Notes under the pieces: model-generated
Databases searched by the model: none
The model's input: the letters and a program-made list of their open reading frames with translations, nothing else
Told to the model about the DNA's origin: nothing
In this document: piece after piece, positions 1,183 through 44,185 of the stretch
Layout: every line of letters starts with the position of its first letter
Position numbering within the stretch: position 1 is the stretch's first letter
Made by a program: the position numbers and the translations under genes
Origin: Candidatus Parcubacteria bacterium
GTDB taxonomy: Bacteria; Patescibacteriota; Minisyncoccia; JACPXH01
Assembly: GCA_016196625.1 (NCBI GenBank)
Contig: JACPXH010000003.1
Location: 1-45,798 of the forward strand
Direction: 5' to 3'
DNA: 45,798 nt

Positions 1183-3168
1183 TCATACCCCGAAAATCCG
1201 ATCGAGATCCACGACTCGCTCCGCAGCTGGGTGCGGTCCGGCAATTTCAATGAGTTCCGGGGGGATCTCGTTCAAAAACCGCGAAGGAGGGTTGACGCGG
1301 GTTGAGCCAAACAAAGTGCGGGTGCGCGCAACCAGTAGCGTGAGATACTGCTTGGCGCGGGTGAGGCCTACGTAGGCAAGCCGGCGCTCTTCTTCTAGTT
1401 CTGCCGGATCAAGCAGGCTCCGGCTGTGCGGAAAAATTCCTTCTTCCAGGCCGATCATGAAGACTGCTTCAAACTCAAGGCCCTTGGCCGCATGCAGCGT
1501 GAGCAGATTGAGCCGATCTTGGGGCCGCGTCAGTTCGTCAGAATCGTCCACCAGACTCGCCTCTTCCAAGAGCGCTTCGAGCCCGTGAGGCGGCGCTTTG
1601 GCATCGTATTGGCGAGCGACGCTGATGAGTTCGAGCACGTTTTCCCAGCGTTCGGCCGCGTCCGCAACATTCGCCTTGAGGTGCTCTTCATACGCAATGG
1701 TCCGTAGCAGTTCTTCAATCAGCTGGGCGCCTTTAGTGCGCTGGGATTTGGTGTGGAAGCTGGTCAGAAGCGAGAAGAGCGCAGAGGTACCTTCAGTGGG
1801 CGCGGCACCTTGTTGAACCCAAGCGGTCTGAGCCCGTTCTATGCCCCGGGGCCCCAGCCCTCGCGCCGGCACATTGGCGATTCGCCGGAACGAGACCGTA
1901 TCAAGCGGGTTCAGTATGAGCCGCAGGTAAGCAAGAACATCTTTGACTTCGCGGCGCTGGTAGAAAGAGACACCACCCACCAAGGCATAGGGCACTTGAG
2001 CCTCCAGGCAGGCCTGTTCCACCGCGCGCGATTGGGCATTGGTGCGGTAGAGCACTGCCATTTCGGAGAGCTTCAGGCGGGCTTCGTGCTTTAGACGCAG
2101 CGTTTCTTCTAAGACGGCGACGGCTTCTTCGCGCTCGTCAGCGACCAGCCGGAGGGTAATCTTGGGTCCCTGAGCATTTTGCGTGGTGAGCTCTTTGGGT
2201 TTCTGGAGGGCGTTGTGGCTGATGAGTCGGGCAGCCGCAGCGAGGATCGTTTGCGTGGAGCGGTAGTTCTCGTTGAGCACAATGACGGTGGCATCGGGCC
2301 AGTCGCGCTCGAAATTAAGAATGTTGCGGAAATCAGCCCCGCGGAACGAATAGATGGATTGCGCGTCGTCGCCAATGACGAATAGGCGCCGGTGGCCGGC
2401 GGCGAGCTTATGGAGCAGGACGTATTGAGCGTGGTTGGTGTCCTGGTATTCGTCCACGAGGATGTGCGCAAAGCGTCTCTGGAGGCGCGAGAGCACTTCG
2501 GGGTGTTCGGTCAAGATCTGGACGGCGAACCCAATGAGGTCGTCGAAATCCACGGCATTGGCTTGACGTAGTGCCGCCGCGTAGCCCTGCCAGATGCGGG
2601 CCACAGTTTCTGGCCAGAGTCCCCTGCCCGTAGCTTCGTACTCCGGGCAAGACTTGAGCTCCTGCTTCGCCCGGGAAATTGTGGCCAGCACCGCGGCCGG
2701 AGCAAACTGCTTGGGATCTAGCTCCTCGGCCTTGATGACTTTTTTTACGACTCCCAGCTGGTCGTCGGCGTCGTAGATGGTGTAGGGCCTCCGGTAGCCA
2801 ACGAGGTTCGCGTGCGCCTGCAAGATGTGGTTGGCGAGTCGGTGGAACGTGCCGATGAAGGGCCGCATCCCGCCTCCGGCACCGGAGGCGGGATGCGGCA
2901 AGCCCTTGTGGCCGGGCCGAAGGCCCAATAGCTTAGTTACTCGTTCCCCAACCTCGCGCGCTGCCTTGTTGGTGAAGGTAACGGCCAGAATTAGGTGAGC
3001 CGCTACCCCGCGGCCGATCAAATACGCGATCCGGTGCGTAAGCGCCCGCGTTTTCCCGGAGCCGGCCCCTGCCAGTATCAACACCGGACCGTCGGGTGCG
3101 GTTACGGCGGCGCGTTGGCCTGCGTTTAGGTCCTTGAGGATTGGGTTGGGTACAGCCGACATGCCCAT
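1183..3168 (-). CDS. pcrA: ATP-dependent DNA helicase UvrD/PcrA (true start possibly 3162)
   Basis: SF1A motifs AGAGSGKT, TFTNKAA, VDEYQDTN, GDDAQSIYSFRGA, ENYRST, TLHAAKGLEF, EERRLAYVGLTRAK. Confidence 0.96.
   Translation of the reverse strand: MGMSAVPNPILKDLNAGQRAAVTAPDGPVLILAGAGSGKTRALTHRIAYLIGRGVAAHLILAVTFTNKAAREVGERVTKLLGLRPGHKGLPHPASGAGGGMRPFIGTFHRLANHILQAHANLVGYRRPYTIYDADDQLGVVKKVIKAEELDPKQFAPAAVLATISRAKQELKSCPEYEATGRGLWPETVARIWQGYAAALRQANAVDFDDLIGFAVQILTEHPEVLSRLQRRFAHILVDEYQDTNHAQYVLLHKLAAGHRRLFVIGDDAQSIYSFRGADFRNILNFERDWPDATVIVLNENYRSTQTILAAAARLISHNALQKPKELTTQNAQGPKITLRLVADEREEAVAVLEETLRLKHEARLKLSEMAVLYRTNAQSRAVEQACLEAQVPYALVGGVSFYQRREVKDVLAYLRLILNPLDTVSFRRIANVPARGLGPRGIERAQTAWVQQGAAPTEGTSALFSLLTSFHTKSQRTKGAQLIEELLRTIAYEEHLKANVADAAERWENVLELISVARQYDAKAPPHGLEALLEEASLVDDSDELTRPQDRLNLLTLHAAKGLEFEAVFMIGLEEGIFPHSRSLLDPAELEEERRLAYVGLTRAKQYLTLLVARTRTLFGSTRVNPPSRFLNEIPPELIEIAGPHPAAERVVDLDRIFGV
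2862..2899. repeat. Perfect 18-bp-arm palindrome inside the pcrA coding sequence
   Basis: GCCGCATCCCGCCTCCGG-CA-CCGGAGGCGGGATGCGGC encodes part of an extra Gly/Pro-rich segment (LPHPASGAGGGMRP) before IGTFH. Confidence 0.85.
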
Positions 3169-14717: not shown

Positions 14718-16208
14718 ATGCCCAGCCAGAAAACTCCGAAAGAAGTTGCCGCCTTGATTGAGCAGCTCACCACTGCTGGTTTTGAAGCTGTTGTGGTGGG
14801 TGGGTGCGTGAGGGATCTTTTGCTCAACGCGAAACCGGCGGATTGGGATGTAGCCACAGATGCGATTCCCGAAGAGATCCAGCGGGTTTTCCCGGAGAGC
14901 GTATATGAAAATCAGTTCGGCACCGTGGGCGTGAAAACCGGCAGCGATGATCCATCGCTCGCGATTGTAGAAGTAACCACGTATCGGGTGGACGAATCAT
15001 ACTCTGACCAGCGTCACCCGGATCGGGTGCGGTTCACCAAGAGTCTTGAGGAAGATTTGGCGCGGCGGGATTTTACGATCAATGCCATCGCACTGAAAAT
15101 CAAAAATCCAGATCAAAACTCCAAAATAGCGGAAGACTACGAAATTGTTGATCCGTTTGGCGGGCAGGCCGACCTTGAGGCGAGGCTTATCCGCGCGGTG
15201 GGGGAGCCGACCACACGTTTCCGGGAAGATGCGCTGCGGCTCATGCGGGCGGTGCGGCTGGCCACACAGCTCGGGTTCACGATTGAGCCGGAAACCACCG
15301 CGGCTATCAAGGCGAATGCGCGGTTACTCAAAGCCATCGCCGCAGAGCGCATCCGCGACGAACTCACGAAATTGGTCATGGCAGATAAGCCCGCTCTTGG
15401 TTTCACGTTGCTCAAGGATTTGGAGTTGCTGGAATACGTCTTGCCTGAACTTGCCGAGGGGGTTGGCGTGGGCCAGAATAAGCACCACATCTATCCGGTG
15501 TTTGAACATTCAATCAATTCGCTTGAGTACGCAGCCCACGCCAAGTACTCGCTCAACGTTCGGCTCGCCGCGCTCTTGCACGATGTCGGCAAACCAAAAA
15601 CCAAGCGGGGCGAAGGGCCGGATTCCACGTTTTACGGCCACGAGATGGTGGGGGCAAAGATGACGCGTCAAGCTCTTCGCCGCCTCAAATTCTCCAAGGA
15701 TATCGAGGAGCAGGTAACGCATCTCGTGCGCTACCACCTCTTCTATTACAATGTGGACGAGGTAACCGAAGCCGGGGTCCGGCGGCTCGTGCGCAAGGTT
15801 GGGCCGGAGCACATGGCTGATCTCATCAAGTTGCGCACCGCAGACCGGAAGGGATCGGGTGTGCCCAAAGCCATGCCGTATAAACTTCGGCATTTGCAGT
15901 TTTTGATCGAGAAGGTTTCGCGCGATCCCTTGACCGTCGGAATGCTCAACATCAGGGGCGATGACATCATGCGGATTTTGAAGATTGACCCCGGGCCAAA
16001 GGTCGGTCTAATATTGAAAGCCCTCATGGACGAAGTGCTTGATGATCCGGGGAAAAACACCACAGAATATCTTGAGGCGCGCATTGCCGAGCTCGGTGCG
16101 CTATCAGAGCCAGAGCTCCGAAAATTTGCCCAAGCCGGGGAGGGGAAGGTGGAGGAGTTCGAGGCCGGGGCAGTCGCCGAAATAAAAAAGAAGCACTGGG
16201 TGCAGTAA
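14718..16208 (+). CDS. cca: CCA tRNA nucleotidyltransferase (class II) with HD domain
   Basis: VGGCVRDLL, DWDVAT, EVTTYR, EDLARRDFTINA, FREDALRLMRAVR, ALLHDVGK. Confidence 0.93.
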   Translation: MPSQKTPKEVAALIEQLTTAGFEAVVVGGCVRDLLLNAKPADWDVATDAIPEEIQRVFPESVYENQFGTVGVKTGSDDPSLAIVEVTTYRVDESYSDQRHPDRVRFTKSLEEDLARRDFTINAIALKIKNPDQNSKIAEDYEIVDPFGGQADLEARLIRAVGEPTTRFREDALRLMRAVRLATQLGFTIEPETTAAIKANARLLKAIAAERIRDELTKLVMADKPALGFTLLKDLELLEYVLPELAEGVGVGQNKHHIYPVFEHSINSLEYAAHAKYSLNVRLAALLHDVGKPKTKRGEGPDSTFYGHEMVGAKMTRQALRRLKFSKDIEEQVTHLVRYHLFYYNVDEVTEAGVRRLVRKVGPEHMADLIKLRTADRKGSGVPKAMPYKLRHLQFLIEKVSRDPLTVGMLNIRGDDIMRILKIDPGPKVGLILKALMDEVLDDPGKNTTEYLEARIAELGALSEPELRKFAQAGEGKVEEFEAGAVAEIKKKHWVQ

Positions 16209-16262
16209 ATTGTAAGAAATCATCGCGTTGTTTACACAAACAGACATGATACGATCTGACAC

Positions 16263-16394
16263 CAAGCCGGGCAGGCTCTCGCTACGCGAAAATCCCCAGC
16301 GAGGATTTTCGCTGCTCTTCGGCCTCGCTCCTCCGCCTGCTGGCGGAGACCCTGCCCGCTCGGCCTCAGAAGCCACTCGAGCCTACCCGGCTTG
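16263..16394. repeat. Stem-closed palindromic element, related to the nusA leader element
   Basis: Terminal IR CAAGCCGGGCAGGCTC/GAGCCTACCCGGCTTG (15/16 match). Internal CCTGCCCGCTCGGCCT (16351-16366) is identical to 29737-29752. Confidence 0.7.
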
Positions 16395-16462
16395 ATGCAA
16401 ACAACGCTAGCCTTTCTTACAAGTAGTGATGCCCACGTGAGTCGAAGCGGGGCGAGCGAAGG

Positions 16463-16646
16463 CGGGCTGTAGTGGACCGGTACCACGCTTGGCCCGCCCC
16501 GCACCAATTCGCCGGGGATTAGTGTAGCGGCAACATGCATGGTTCGGGACCATGATACGGTGGGTTCGACTCCCACATCCCCGAATGAAGAATTTGGTGC
16601 GGGGTGAAGGACCAAGAGGCAGAGGGTTCAATTCCCTCCAGCCCGA
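16463..16646 (+). pseudogene. Interrupted tRNA-Pro-like gene; 5' half 16463-16492, 3' half ~16605-16646; anticodon loop holds a ~112-nt insert
   Basis: Acceptor CGGGCTG/CAGCCCG + A73, D-stem GTGG/CCAC, anticodon stem CTTGG/CCAAG, T-arm GAGGG-TTCAATT-CCCTC, all fully paired. C1-G72/A73 are Pro identity elements. Confidence 0.85.
16513..16584 (+). tRNA. tRNA-Pro(CGG), nested inside the interrupted tRNA above
   Basis: CGGGGATTAGTGTAGCGGCAACATGCATGGTT-CGG-GACCATGATACGGTGGGTTCGACTCCCACATCCCCGA is a complete cloverleaf. Confidence 0.93.
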
Positions 16647-16756
16647 CTGAACAAAGTGAAGGAGGGTGGAGCACGCAAACTGCTTTGCGTGCGGAGGGCG
16701 GAGCCGCCGACGTTCCCCTGGGCTGGGCTTCCGGCCCGACATATATCGAACGTTGC

Positions 16757-16827
16757 GGGCCTATAGCACAGCGGTAGTGCGCCGCATTCGCATTGCGGAG
16801 ACGGGAGTTCGATCCTCCCTAGGTCCA
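16757..16827 (+). tRNA. tRNA-Ala(CGC)
   Basis: GGGCCTATAGCACAGCGGTAGTGCGCCGCATT-CGC-ATTGCGGAGACGGGAGTTCGATCCTCCCTAGGTCCA, with the G3:U70 pair. Confidence 0.93.
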
Positions 16828-16881
16828 CATTTCAAGATTTCAAGACTTCGCAGTGCATGTTTTTGTGGCAACCATAGTCGC

Positions 16882-16910
16882 TTGACATTTTCTTGATATC
16901 ATAATACTGT
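16882..16910 (+). promoter_or_regulatory. sigma70-type promoter for the SDR gene
   Basis: TTGACA-17 nt-TACTGT. Confidence 0.55.
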
Positions 16911-17031
16911 TTGCGTCGGAGTTTAACTTGGTAATTCCGCGTAGTCTTGCTGCGCGGTCATGCCGCGCGGAGGGTCATCTGACCCATCAGGCGGCCGTGG
17001 ACATGGACTTGTATCGAAGGAGGGCGGGAGC

Positions 17032-17820: not shown

Positions 17821-17979
17821 ATTTACCCAACGCACCACAAGGCCATCGTCTCCTGCTCGCCTCGCTTCGCGGGCGAAGCGGGCCGGTGGATGAATGGTTG
17901 GTGCGTAGGCCTTCGGTGCGGGGTTCCGTTCCGCCACCGAAACACGAGGTGCCGCCGACTCCCGTCGGCGGGGCTCCAC
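17821..17979 (-). repeat. 159-bp palindromic repeat element, an inverted copy of the element inside tig
   Basis: Reverse complement aligns closely to 34624-34791; the tig copy has an extra ATCCACCGG duplication. Confidence 0.9.
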
Positions 17980-33435: not shown

Positions 33436-34871
33436 AGACAGCCGTCGTCAAACACACCGGATCACGGGTTGCGCTTACGGTTGAGCTCACCCCGGAAGAG
33501 TTTGAACCGTACTGGGAGCGAGCGGTCTCGGTCCTCGGGCGTGAAGTCCACGAGCCCGGGTTTCGGCCGGGCAAGGCGCCGAGCCAGATCGTGGTGGGCA
33601 CCATAGGCGAGGGCGCGGTCCTTGATCGTGCGGCCCGCTTGGCGGTGGGGAAAACCTATGCCCGCGCGCTCGAAGAGCAGGACTTGGAAACCGTGGGCGA
33701 GCCCAGAATAGAGGTTCTCAAGGTGGCGCGGGCGAACCCCTTTATTTATCGGGCGATGTTTGCGGTTCCGCCCGAGATTATCCTGCCCGATTGGCGAAGA
33801 ATCGCCCGAGGCATTCCCTTGGAGGCGGCTGCGGTCACCGAACAAGAACTGTCTTCAGCCTTGCGGTATCTGTGCGAGGCTAGGGCTGTGTTTACAGCCG
33901 TCAGTCGGCCGGCCGCGCGTGGCGATCGGGTCCATGTTGATTTTGTTCTTCGTATCGAGGGGAAGACGGTGGCAGGCGGGGAAAGCAAAAATCACCCTTT
34001 CATCTTGGGCGAGGGTCGGTTTCTTGCGGGCTTTGAAGATCAGATCATCGGCATGCAGGTGGGTGAGGAGAAGTCGTTTTTTCTCTCGGTGCCCCCGGAT
34101 TTTCCCCAACGTACGATCGCTGGCCAGACCTTGGATGTATCGGTTGCGCTGCGGCAATTGGAAGAGCGATCCGTGCCGGAGTTGAACGATGAGTTCGCCC
34201 GTTCGGTGGGGAGGTTTGCGGATGCGGCAGCTCTCTTCGGCAACGTGGCTGAGGGGTTACGTCTTGAGAAGACTGAAGCGGCCAAGGTTGCTCGGCGCAG
34301 TGCCGCGATTGAAGCCATAGCCGAGCGTGCCCGCCCTGAAGTGCCGGCCGCACTCATCGAAGCCGAGCTTGACCGGATGATCCATGAGTTTGGGCATTCA
34401 CTCGAGACCTACGGGCGTGATCTATCTCTGTACTTGGTCGAAGTAGGTAAAACCGAAGCCGAGCTGCGCGCTGATTGGCGCACCCGCGCCGAGCGCCGGA
34501 CCAAGGCCGAGCTTATTATCCGCGCCATAGCCAAGGCCGAACTCATCGCGCCCGGGCCCGGCGAAGTTGAGGCGCGCATGCAGCAGGTGCTCCAGTAGTT
34601 CCATGCGGTTAAAGCAGCAAACAGTGGAGCCCCGCCGACGGGAGTCGGCGGCACCTCTCATTTCGGTGGCGGGGCAGAACCCCGCACCGAAGGTCTACGC
34701 ACCAACCATCCATCCACCGGATCCACCGGCCCGCTTCGCCCGCGAAGCGAGGCGAGCAGGAGACGATGGCCTTCTGGTGCGTTGGGTAAATTTGACCCCG
34801 CGCAACTCGAGGCGTATACTCGGGGCGTGCTGAGGGCGGAAAAAGTACTTGAACTGCTGGATTCAGCATAA
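33432..34871 (+). CDS. tig: Trigger factor; ORF stops at TAG 34596-34598 but the frame stays open to TAA 34869-34871
   Basis: PGFRPGKAP ribosome-binding motif and FKBP domain (GFEDQIIGM). A C-terminal helix-like segment [22 protein letters not shown] lies downstream of the TAG and an in-frame insert. Confidence 0.88.
34624..34791 (+). repeat. 168-bp palindromic element inserted in frame in the 3' part of tig
   Basis: 56 codons with no stops in the tig frame; second copy at 17821-17979. Confidence 0.9.
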
Positions 34872-41829: not shown

Positions 41830-43800
41830 ATGCCTCGTCGTTGGCGAAGGCAGAATCGAGCGTCTCGCTGGGGGTGGCCGGCGTCCACAGTGGCCGCCGT
41901 GGTGTTGGCCATAGGCGCTTTGGCGTTTCTTGATGTTTTTCAGTCAGTTGAAGCTCGGCTCTCGGACCGATTGTTTCTGTCGCGCGCTCCGCGATCCGAC
42001 ATTGTCATCGTGGCCATTGATGATGCAAGTTTGCAGGCGGTGGGACGCTGGCCCTGGCCGCGCCGGGTGCACGCCGAGCTTATCGGCATCCTCAAACCCG
42101 TTGAGCCGGCGGTAGTTGCTTTCGATGTCGCCTTTTTTGAATCCTCGAGCGCCGCTGACGATGAAGCTTTGGCCAAAGCCATAGCGTCTGTCCCGACCGT
42201 GCTCACAGTTGAAGCGCAAGATTTTACCGCACGGCAGAGGCCTTGGCAGGGGAGTGGCTTGCTTCAACCGATTCTGGTGTTGCGCCAAGCCGCCCGGGCT
42301 CTGGGGCACGCGCACACGCCGGCTCAAGGCGACGGAGTGGTGCGCGTTTTTCCGGACGAGTTGGTTACGCCCGAGGGTGAGTTCCCCCCGTTCGCCTTGG
42401 CGGCAATTGCGAGCCGTGGCGGTAGACGGGATTTCAAGTCGGACCGGATTAATTTCGTTGGTCCTCCGGGCACAATAAAAACCGTCTCGTACGCCGATGT
42501 GCTGGCGGGGCATATCCCGGCCGAACAGTTTCGCGATGCGTTTGTGTTCGTGGGCGCCACCGCCCCGAGTCTGCATGATACGGTTTTGACTCCTAGTTCG
42601 CGGGGGAATGGGCTTGCCGGTGTGGAGCTGCACGCGCAGATTGCCGAGCAGGTGCTTCGAGGTCTGCCCTTGCGGGTGGCTCCGAAACAGGCGACCGTCG
42701 GCGTCGTCGTGGCGCTCGGGCTCCTGATTGCTTTCACCTTTCCTCGCGGCCGGCGTTTGCGCCACGCCGCGCTCGTAGCCCTTGTCTTTGGTTTGGCCTA
42801 TAACGGGCTCGTACTCCTGGCCTTCAGCCGGGGGTTGATCCTTAACATTTTCTGGCCCAACGTGACGATCATGGCCGTGGTGGTGGCGATGGTGGGGGTT
42901 GAGTACCTTGCCGCCAGCCGCGAGCGCCGCTTCATCCGGGAGACATTCAGTCGGTACGTATCTCCTGAAGTCGTGGCGCATCTCCTTGAGCATCCCGAGC
43001 ACCTGCGGCTCGGCGGCGAGGTGCGCACGCTGACGATTCTCTTTTCTGACATCCGCAGCTTTACTTCTATTTCGGAGCGGCTTGCCGCCGGCGAACTCAC
43101 GCAGCTTTTAAACCGGTACCTGACCGCAATGTCGGCCGTTATCCTGCAGGAAGGCGGCGTGCTCGACAAATACATTGGCGACGCCATCATGGCTTTCTGG
43201 GGCGCGCCCATTCCCATGGCCGATCATGCTGCCCGAGCTGTCCGGGCAGCGCTCGGCATGCAGAAGGCACTCGAAGGCCTCAACGCCGAGTTGGCCCGCG
43301 AAGGCAAGCCCAAGATTGCGATCGGCATCGGCATCAACACGGGCGAAGTGGTGGTGGGGAACATGGGGTCTCAACAGCGTTTTGACTACACCGTGATCGG
43401 CGACGCGGTCAATCTTGCGTCGCGCCTTGAGGGTTTGAATAAGATCTACGGCACTATGATGCTAGTGTCGGCTGAGACCGAGCGCGAGTTGCCGCTGGAA
43501 GTTTTTAGGCGCGAAGTTGACCGGGTTGCGGTTAAGGGGAAGTCCGGAGCTGTTACTGTTTTTGAATTGATGAGTGGAGAGGAGTTTGAAAAAAATAAGC
43601 GAGCCCTCGCCGTTTTTGCAGAGGCGCTCGAGCACTATCGTGCCCAGCGCTGGGACGAAGCCGAGGCAGCGCTTGCGAACGTTCTCGCCCTCCGGCTAGG
43701 CGATGGGCCGAGCGAAGTTTTCCTTAAACGAATTAAAGTATTCCGGCACAACGCGCCCCTGCCCGGTTGGGACGGCAGCTGGCAGGCGGAAACAAAGTAA
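41830..43800 (+). CDS. CHASE2-domain class III adenylate cyclase
   Basis: CHASE2 motifs IVAIDDASL..GRWPWPR and GVELHAQ, three TM helices, FSDIRSFT, DKYIGDAIMAFWGAP (Lys), DYTVIGDAVNLASRLE (Asp; ATP-specifying pair). Confidence 0.93.
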   Translation: MPRRWRRQNRASRWGWPASTVAAVVLAIGALAFLDVFQSVEARLSDRLFLSRAPRSDIVIVAIDDASLQAVGRWPWPRRVHAELIGILKPVEPAVVAFDVAFFESSSAADDEALAKAIASVPTVLTVEAQDFTARQRPWQGSGLLQPILVLRQAARALGHAHTPAQGDGVVRVFPDELVTPEGEFPPFALAAIASRGGRRDFKSDRINFVGPPGTIKTVSYADVLAGHIPAEQFRDAFVFVGATAPSLHDTVLTPSSRGNGLAGVELHAQIAEQVLRGLPLRVAPKQATVGVVVALGLLIAFTFPRGRRLRHAALVALVFGLAYNGLVLLAFSRGLILNIFWPNVTIMAVVVAMVGVEYLAASRERRFIRETFSRYVSPEVVAHLLEHPEHLRLGGEVRTLTILFSDIRSFTSISERLAAGELTQLLNRYLTAMSAVILQEGGVLDKYIGDAIMAFWGAPIPMADHAARAVRAALGMQKALEGLNAELAREGKPKIAIGIGINTGEVVVGNMGSQQRFDYTVIGDAVNLASRLEGLNKIYGTMMLVSAETERELPLEVFRREVDRVAVKGKSGAVTVFELMSGEEFEKNKRALAVFAEALEHYRAQRWDEAEAALANVLALRLGDGPSEVFLKRIKVFRHNAPLPGWDGSWQAETK

Positions 43801-43829
43801 CAGTTCGCCTCGGCGAGCTGTTACTGTTC

Positions 43830-43971
43830 TGGAGCGAGTAGGGGGAACCCCGCACCGAGTTCCGAAACGGGGTTGACTCAACTCACGTTACTGCCTCGGT
43901 AACGCCTGCGGCTTTGCGTCATCTTCGCACCGCTTCTTCCCCGAGAATTGGTGCGGGGCAGGTCGAACCCC
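43830..43971 (-). pseudogene. 3' fragment of a tRNA-Gly-like gene (att remnant), with a 115-bp insert (43848-43962) in its T-loop
   Basis: Minus strand reads GGGGTTCGA|insert|TTCCCCCTACTCGCTCCA; the insert is CCTGCCCCGCACCAATTC...GAACTCGGTGCGGGG. Confidence 0.65.
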
Positions 43972-43984
43972 ATGCTTGAGTATA

Positions 43985-44125
43985 TTTACAACAAAGCTCG
44001 AAACCATTTCCTGCAAAATTGCTGACGCAATTTTGCTTTCCGAAATCCGCTCGGGCGGCGCGGGAAGGAGGGGTGGGGGGAGGAATGCCCGCGCCGCCCT
44101 CGCTTGGAAAAAATTACCGCCGCCG
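43985..44125 (+). repeat. 141-bp perfect inverted repeat, left copy
   Basis: Exact reverse complement of 45658-45798; covers most of the recombinase-tail-like MLEYIYNKARNHFLQNC* (starts 43972). Confidence 0.92.
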
Positions 44126-44185
44126 AAAGCTTTTCGAAAAAGAAAAAGGGCGTTGCCGAGTAAACGACAACGCCCATGGGTCGGA

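Follow-up and report, generated by a model that had tools for sequence, protein, structure and literature searches.

The intron of archaeal tRNA-Trp, a transfer RNA (tRNA), can contain a functional box C/D RNA. Archaeal tRNA introns of the bulge-helix-bulge type occupy anticodon, D and T loops, may be several to a gene and appear to move between tRNA genes; intron transposition has been described in Thermoproteales (PMC10714607). In bacteria, group I introns with a catalytic core interrupt the anticodon loops of tRNA genes, and tyrosine-integrase islands and phages, kilobases long and encoding an integrase, enter tRNA genes and rebuild the same gene through a direct repeat of its 3' end. In engineered tRNA scaffolds, a cargo-bearing stem takes the place of the cloverleaf's anticodon loop. 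Here we analyse a natural locus in a stretch of 45,798 nucleotides (nt) from a Candidatus Parcubacteria bacterium (contig JACPXH010000003.1 of assembly GCA_016196625.1; the window throughout), in which an intact tRNA-Pro(CGG) gene lies inside the anticodon loop of a second tRNA-Pro gene, on a 116-nt cassette bounded by inverted-repeat arms. We propose, with a probability of about 0.7, that this nest is a self-compensating gene replacement by a small cassette that brought its own tRNA. None of the known systems that we compared combines inverted arms, a whole-tRNA cargo, tRNA-loop targets and agreement in amino-acid identity between cargo and target.

The outer gene has all four cloverleaf stems at canonical length, each fully paired (Table 1), with C1-G72 as its first pair and the discriminator A73 at 16646; an intact 7-nt loop with U33 and an anticodon is absent. 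In place of that loop stands a stem of about 16 base pairs (bp), with one G-T pair and one bulged T, that carries the inner tRNA. The cassette reads, in order, flank CCCGC, left arm, spacer, inner tRNA, spacer, right arm and flank GTGAA, and a single arm, read directly, has no internal palindrome. ARAGORN and Rfam agree on the inner gene (RF00005, 57.9 bits against a cut-off of 29), whose anticodon loop, TTCGGGA, has the seven nucleotides, the U33 and the purine at position 37 of a tRNA. Folding 16463-16646 yields the nested double cloverleaf as the structure of lowest energy (-87.7 kcal/mol, z = -4.47), and none of 200 shuffled sequences folded as well. These results bear out the architecture proposed in an earlier reading of the letters alone (the sequence-only reading): a perfectly paired outer cloverleaf with C1-G72 and A73 around a complete tRNA-Pro(CGG).

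Table 1. Features of the nested tRNA-Pro locus, its neighbours in the window and enzyme genes of the same genome (G000).
Feature	Coordinates	Strand	Basis or remark
cca (CCA-adding tRNA nucleotidyltransferase), upstream neighbour	14718..16208	+	Pfam PolyA_pol head, PolyA_pol_RNAbd, HD, tRNA_NucTran2_2
Unrelated ~200-nt repeat with inverted ends, between cca and outer tRNA	16205..16462	.	BLAST
Outer tRNA-Pro, 5' part (acceptor 5' strand, D arm, anticodon-stem 5' strand)	16463..16492	+	Direct reading, fold
Inserted 116-nt cassette	16493..16608	+	Exact stretch skipped in three contigs of run X4
Left inverted-repeat arm	16495..16510	+	Invariant core CCCCGCACCAA
Inner tRNA-Pro(CGG), intact	16513..16584	+	ARAGORN, Rfam
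Right inverted-repeat arm	16590..16606	+	Core TTGGTGCGGGG
Outer tRNA-Pro, 3' part	16609..16646	+	GGA loop end, anticodon-stem 3' strand, variable loop, T arm, acceptor 3' strand, A73
Outer acceptor stem	16463-16469 / 16639-16645		7/7 paired
Outer D stem	16472-16475 / 16483-16486		4/4 paired
Outer anticodon stem	16488-16492 / 16612-16616		5/5 paired
Outer T stem	16622-16626 / 16634-16638		5/5 paired
Long stem carrying the inner tRNA	16495-16510 / 16590-16606		~16 bp
Second unrelated small insert, after outer tRNA	16648..16756	+	Ends in degenerate repeat of tRNA-Pro 3' end
tRNA-Ala(CGC), downstream neighbour	16757..16828	+	ARAGORN, Rfam; 93% identical to the copy in same-genus genome G001
Second member of the arm family, with non-tRNA cargo	43842..43964	+	Invariant CGCCT..GGCT motif
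RtcB	G000:C12:58875-60161		561 bits
Two reverse transcriptases, truncated Y1 transposase and tyrosine recombinase of G000	C13:22665-23276; C14:18596-19144; C8:1599-1805; C21:85098-85577		No link to the cassette found

The 116 nt at 16493-16608 are an insertion with exact limits. Three contigs of sequencing run X4 lack precisely this stretch and read, between 16492 and 16609, TTCG (depth 57.5) or TTTG (depth 8.1) instead; the uninterrupted outer loop in that run reads TTCGGGA, with anticodon CGG, or TTTGGGA, and the insert stands in place of loop bases 32-35 (TTCG). Over 16392-16492, one of these insert-free contigs matches the window but for one letter and one gap. Run X2 also has a related uninterrupted tRNA-Pro(CGG), the same-genus genome G001 holds cca, a plain tRNA-Pro(CGG), ~10 nt and tRNA-Ala in succession, and a further metagenome-contig allele resembles this arrangement. 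These junctions were read from contigs of metagenomes at 90% likeness, and some have short sides (26-31 letters); they place such alleles in related populations, which may not be the same strain, and do not establish any of them as the direct ancestor. An artefact joining reads of two tRNA-Pro genes would be a natural suspicion, since tRNA genes and repeats misassemble readily in metagenome bins, but we consider its probability negligible: Logan contigs of two other runs cross the junctions without a single difference (X2, 16337-16626 and 16598-16830; X3, 16341-16542), and the same architecture with the same arms is found in many independent assemblies. A contig of run X1, which may be the source sample and hence not independent, covers 16319-17000. 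Two of the checks that the sequence-only reading had advised, for spanning sequence and for empty alleles in relatives, have turned out in favour of a real insertion.

The window is contig C10 of G000, an assembly of 818 kilobases (kb) in 25 contigs with 57% G+C, 94% complete, in which ARAGORN finds one transfer-messenger RNA (tmRNA) and 38 tRNA genes, or 40 with introns allowed. Its proline isoacceptors are CGG, GGG (on contig C14) and TGG (C22), and the genome-wide survey, another suggested check, established the inner tRNA as the only Pro(CGG) gene of the genome. With a free-standing tRNA-Pro(CGG) in a genome of a different family (G047) the inner tRNA shares 95% identity, but only 83% with that of G001, a pattern that fits horizontal arrival. 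Asp(GTC) and Ile(TAT) are further sole-copy tRNAs of G000 borne on cassettes, the former inside an Asp shell whose acceptor stem is slightly decayed.

As it stands, the outer gene receives no call from ARAGORN, even when introns are allowed. Removing the insert in silico gave a tRNA call across the junction in 63 of 99 boundary combinations, but the anticodon called varied with the boundary and was Pro-CGG in only two. Excision leaves TGAAGGA, or CC plus GGA, as the loop, and never TTCGGGA; a loop without U33 had been expected from the letters alone. We infer that the insertion has inactivated the outer gene, as no excision gives back a 7-nt loop that has both U33 and an anticodon; the perfect stems would reflect recent insertion rather than selection, since a nearly identical empty allele exists. 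Rfam, at gathering scores, matches only four tRNAs in the window and no intron model in the insert, and the predicted fold is a continuous helix with small internal loops rather than a bulge-helix-bulge, so the earlier claims that neither a group I or II core nor a clear bulge-helix-bulge is present also hold. Like group I introns of bacterial tRNAs, the cassette interrupts the anticodon loop; unlike them, it is 116 nt long and mostly tRNA, with no room for a catalytic core.

In the replacement that we favour, a non-autonomous 116-nt cassette would have entered the anticodon loop of the resident tRNA-Pro(CGG) between cca and tRNA-Ala. The inner tRNA would be transcribed from the promoter of the outer gene, within one precursor: it is probably made from the outer transcript because 116 nt are too few for a promoter of its own and none is predicted nearby (a tool scan of 16100-16950 returned no promoters and no terminators). 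The 16-bp leader–trailer stem would then be opened by a double-strand-specific or dedicated nuclease, after which RNase P, 3' trimming and the neighbouring CCA-adding enzyme would finish the inner tRNA. That a palindromic element with its own tRNA-Pro had struck a tRNA-Pro gene and compensates for the damage was one of the options in the sequence-only reading, and it is supported by the empty alleles, by the arm family described below and by the sole Pro(CGG) gene. Tyrosine-integrase islands and phages likewise enter tRNA genes and restore function from element-borne sequence; the cassette, however, has inverted rather than direct repeats and no room for a gene, and instead of rebuilding the gene that it enters, it supplies a separate, complete tRNA, and the two halves of the old gene stay in place on either side.

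Nests of matching identity recur. Among the sequences examined, 33 cassettes carry a tRNA, 30 of them unique. In 20 of the 30 the tRNA most similar to the flanks has the same amino-acid identity as the cargo, and so it has in 18 of the 21 with a score of at least 50; shuffling the labels gave a mean of 3.4 and a maximum of 12 matches, and none of 20,000 shuffles reached 18. Two of the three high-scoring mismatches (a Val nest at locus L181, and L104) look like Val by eye, a reading based on residual loop bases and near-identity to the cargo. Nest identities comprise Pro, Asp, Ala, Glu, Val, Leu, Gly, Thr and Met, and the insertion sites are anticodon loops, T loops (L127, L089, L072 and an Ile nest on G000:C16) and, once, a D arm (G033). 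Another nest lies in a member of Moraniibacteriota (L135, ~1985-2200, minus strand): its outer acceptor stem, junction type and arms are the same as in the window, and its inner tRNA-Pro(CGG) is quite different. In six nests of one orientation the insert takes the place of the first four loop bases, and TGAA plus the last three loop bases stand on the 3' side; no single junction rule could be derived for all nests, the Gly and Asp nests and those of the other orientation deviating. The sequence-only reading knew of no natural bacterial nested tRNA pair, and in the literature we likewise found no report of nested bacterial tRNA genes or of such cassettes, sequence motifs not being text-searchable; the case is not, however, unique, but one of a recurrent class found in many ultra-small bacteria.

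Nesting can be repeated. In genome G337, two outer genes with a G3-T70 pair, which we take to be an Ala identity mark, surround a tRNA-Ala(CGC), and the flanks best match tRNA-Ala; an arm lies within 35 nt of 11 of the 47 tRNA genes of this genome, and intact tRNA-Ala genes are present elsewhere in it. We had considered whether this triple nest was the genome's sole tRNA-Glu and hence spliced, and rejected the idea: an intact tRNA-Glu(TTC) exists, and the outer genes are Ala-like (50 Rfam tRNA hits).

The agreement in identity between cargo and target is best explained by survivorship. Where a tRNA gene has one copy only, a hit would be survivable only for a cell that receives the same tRNA with the cassette, and that cargo would then be kept for good. 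Cassettes would persist mainly where a resident gene of the same identity had been destroyed, redundant cassettes elsewhere would be lost from streamlined genomes, and repeated rounds of this ratchet would yield the triple Ala nest. A homology-guided mechanism is a possible alternative source of the same rule.

If the outer gene no longer decodes, selection might still keep it as a scaffold that stabilises the inner tRNA or helps in its processing. All four outer stems in the window are perfect, the nested fold is the minimum-energy structure and, after in-silico removal, ARAGORN still calls an intact outer shell around 9 of 136 arm pairs. The almost identical uninterrupted allele, however, leaves no time for decay, which makes the stems uninformative on selection. 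Outer shells are decayed in G033, G060, G088, G103 and G248; shells that are decayed or half missing occur around intact cargo (G088, G033, G060, L115), and there are cassettes without any tRNA shell (L116). We therefore regard a selected scaffold as improbable; the shell itself probably does nothing. The scaffold had been raised in the sequence-only reading, as had an aminoacylatable, non-decoding outer RNA, and we found nothing for either beyond the perfect stems, which recent insertion explains. The likeness to the engineered tRNA scaffold thus lies in the display of a cargo on a stem replacing the anticodon loop of a cloverleaf; the nest differs in being natural, in having arisen by insertion and in giving no sign that the shell is used.

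Alternatively, the insert could be mobile and intron-like, with a nuclease reading the stem, RtcB joining the outer halves and both tRNAs maturing. RtcB is retained in this genome of 818 kb, the core of the stem is invariant and neighbouring pairs covary, and insertion into anticodon, T and D loops resembles that of archaeal mobile tRNA introns (PMC10714607). Cutting out the flank and all that follows up to the end of the right arm gives back an exact CTGTCAC loop in the Asp nest on G000:C16. Between the window and L135, 4 of the 5 pairs of the outer anticodon stem differ and both stems still pair, although this could equally reflect two independent insertions, since the inner tRNAs differ throughout. 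In the window, by contrast, no choice of boundaries restores TTCGGGA, the best outcomes being a C33 loop or TGAAGGA. No bulge-helix-bulge geometry appears in the fold, and the splicing endonuclease (PF01974) was not found in G000, which is 94% complete, in a search whose control matched four archaea. The nests in T loops at L127 and L089 have lost the conserved TT of that loop; many shells carry further insertions or mismatches or lack a half; and the interrupted gene is redundant with the cargo or with another copy wherever this was tested. Nor does RtcB serve as a diagnostic of splicing: it is present here, yet it also occurs in 10 of 14 control bacteria without introns. We consider the intron-like alternative very improbable, and splicing of the window's outer tRNA unlikely. 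Sites of insertion, several inserts per gene, apparent movement between tRNA genes and the presence of a functional RNA within the insert are shared with the archaeal introns; the differences are a bacterial host (tmRNA, tRNA-Pro with C1-G72), the lack of any detected splicing endonuclease or bulge-helix-bulge, the unrestorable outer loop of the window and a cargo that is a tRNA of the same identity.

The arms themselves belong, by sequence, to a multi-copy family in several phyla. Paired 9-nt arm cores 70-100 nt apart occur in 19 of 401 genomes of the class, against none for the reversed control. A 10-nt version of the paired pattern occurs in at least 120 stretches of species-representative genomes; among the matches listed, most are from Patescibacteria and others from Planctomycetota, Omnitrophota, Elusimicrobia and Bdellovibrionales, some of those in G+C-rich genomes probably by chance. 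The exact 11-mer arm is found in 177 of the 401 class genomes (382 matches in all), with bursts of 19 copies in G385, 16 in G337 and 13 each in G000 and G239; the reversed arm, by our reading of the table, never exceeds two per genome, and occurs once in G000 against the 13 exact arms. Arm pairs are 90-210 nt apart with no open reading frame (ORF) inside, no pair encloses a gene among the five arm-richest genomes, and none of 136 arm pairs is an intragenic insertion. Two long arm pairs (G129:C14 and G385:C5), considered as candidates for an autonomous element, resolve into short elements with degenerate partner arms. The element has no Rfam model: at gathering scores only tRNAs of the window matched, and permissive E-values applied to 43700-44150 and to L076 gave matches at chance level.

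With its terminal inverted repeats, small size, many copies and lack of an ORF, the cassette resembles miniature inverted-repeat transposable elements (MITEs). It also shares patchy bursts, intergenic positions within operons and a predicted hairpin-forming transcript with MITEs and with repetitive extragenic palindromic (REP) sequences and REPINs, and we file it as a non-autonomous inverted-repeat element. Unlike any of these, it has a variable cargo that may be a whole functional tRNA gene, makes no target duplication (four loop bases are replaced), counts tRNA loops among its targets, shows covarying pairs beside an invariant core and has no cognate transposase that we could find. REP units are palindromes with a conserved 5' tetranucleotide, and a gene for a REP-associated tyrosine transposase (RAYT) is flanked by repeats; the single arms here are not palindromes, and the only related gene found, a truncated Y1, has no arms beside it.

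Cassettes carry either a whole tRNA or a segment of ~85 nt with an invariant CGCCT..GGCT motif. The latter is found in 34 unique members, which sit between genes, often in ribosomal-protein operons; the member at 43842-43964 of the window has a CHASE2/cyclase gene on one side and an unnamed ORF on the other, each on the + strand. Promoters were considered as a cargo and rejected (a sigma-70 hexamer scan of 33 non-tRNA members gave a mean of 5.1, against 4.8 for the reverse strand and 5.2 for shuffles). So was the restoration of a protein ORF by excision, since the best cases, L130 and L123, are merely adjacent genes in the same frame, the L130 element separating the ATPase gene of an ABC transporter from its permease gene.

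Several observations weigh against a cassette of this kind replacing tRNA genes as a simple mobile element. We found no transposase, target-site duplication or autonomous copy: the window junctions show four replaced nucleotides and no duplication, and although G000 keeps two reverse transcriptases, a truncated Y1 (IS200-type) transposase and one tyrosine recombinase, no link of any of these, or of RtcB, to the cassette was found, and no arms lie beside the Y1 fragment. Among 33 aligned non-tRNA members the arm core is invariant, and the pairs beside it covary: of 18 predicted pairs, 5 show double changes, and one pair alternates between C-G (15 members) and U-A (15), with mismatches in 3. Orientation relative to the flanking genes was decidable for 20 of the 33 non-tRNA members and undecidable for 13; 17 of the 20 are in sense, a bias that is overstated if some of the counted sites are inherited orthologous positions. 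Covariation and sense bias together suggest a constraint on the hairpin at the level of RNA or of single strands, which a plain DNA parasite would not need. In L113, the L181 Val nest and L041, moreover, inner and outer tRNAs are nearly identical, which fits a local or homology-guided origin better than foreign arrival; such near-identity is not seen in the window nest. Nests in related genomes are not independent, so the counts overstate the number of separate events, and the survivorship that we invoke is itself something we infer from the pattern.

The same observations could mean that the stem is an RNA processing signal, a kind of transcript punctuation, with modules spread by recombination and the nest a by-product. 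The covariation of the stem and the preference for the sense strand (17 to 3) would follow, as would the tight fit of elements between co-directional genes, including those of ribosomal-protein operons, and the second covarying hairpin that pairs with the start codon of the next gene. The distribution, however, is patchy and burst-like, with presence varying among close relatives as is typical of mobile DNA, and punctuation alone does not explain insertion into an anticodon loop. We regard this alternative as possible, though with the odds against it; a role of the stem at the RNA level is plausible and in any case compatible with gene replacement. The second hairpin, of ~45 nt, follows many non-tRNA members and covaries with the start codon (AUG with CAU, UUG with CAA); it was seen at L064, L067, L068, L073, L095, L108, L114, L119 and L139, and many of the downstream genes encode ribosomal proteins.

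A more elaborate version would make the stem the signal of an undescribed RNA cut-and-join or punctuation system in ultra-small bacteria, in which a dedicated nuclease frees the cargo, RtcB reseals the transcript and some interrupted tRNAs are functional; this seems to us unlikely. The associated suppositions, that the freed cargo would be tRNAs or an ~85-nt RNA from operon and tRNA transcripts and that the cassettes would spread as introns do, we hold equally doubtful.

The locus brings to light a cassette family that is widespread and undescribed and, if gene replacement by cassette is correct, a way in which tRNA genes are repeatedly replaced: reduced genomes could have theirs exchanged in place by tiny mobile cassettes carrying their own copy, in a ratchet by which a selfish element becomes indispensable and leaves Russian-doll fossils behind. 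This would explain odd tRNA loci in candidate-phyla bacteria. It would also be a warning for annotation, in that outer shells escape notice or receive a wrong call and a tRNA present in one copy may be cargo acquired horizontally. The nest offers a natural counterpart to the engineered tRNA scaffold, and the family adds a widespread, sequence-conserved hairpin element and a start-codon-covering hairpin, both of which bear on the processing and translation of operon transcripts. Recognition of the invariant core of 8-10 bp, as DNA or as RNA, is now directly testable.

The window locus received three small inserts, the cassette being flanked by an upstream and a downstream one (Table 1). BLAST finds 14 more matches to the upstream repeat at 16205-16462 in G000, with identities of 74-100%, and one X4 allele lacks these 258 nt, passing from 16204 to 16463 with 23 other letters between; the repeat has very high depth in X4 contigs, and one copy lies near the reverse-transcriptase gene on C14. 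One X4 allele lacks the downstream 109 nt, passing from 16647 to 16757 with 34 other letters between, and the first ~50 nt of that insert match sequence 3' of tRNA genes in G041, G052, G043 and G009. A conserved element of ~100-220 nt trails Pro, Arg, Met and His tRNA genes in relatives (L005 at ~1529-1715, L032, L033, L034, L036) and ends in a direct repeat of 17-20 nt of the 3' end of that tRNA; it resembles a miniature integrated element, of which 16648-16756 is a short copy after the outer tRNA.

Further small repeats and interruptions were seen in these genomes. A G+C-rich repeat of ~47 nt with a small hairpin, partly resembling the arm core, has ~9 copies in G000, including ~17898-17935 and ~34675-34710 of the window. 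Several decayed outer tRNAs (L104, L122, L042, L195) have a G+C palindrome of ~20 nt in the D loop or near the T arm, and cargo-free arm pairs form an extra hairpin in the outer anticodon loop of G103 (L041) and a degenerate one in the D arm of G033 (L051). Two tRNA genes of G000 carry long anticodon-loop interruptions (G000:C16 c4685-5026 and G000:C21:24624-24906), a Phe(GAA) gene with an insert of 269 nt and a second gene with one of 197 nt, both missed by ARAGORN unless introns are allowed; each insert contains a motif that we take to be typical of group I introns, and the two are likely examples of that class.

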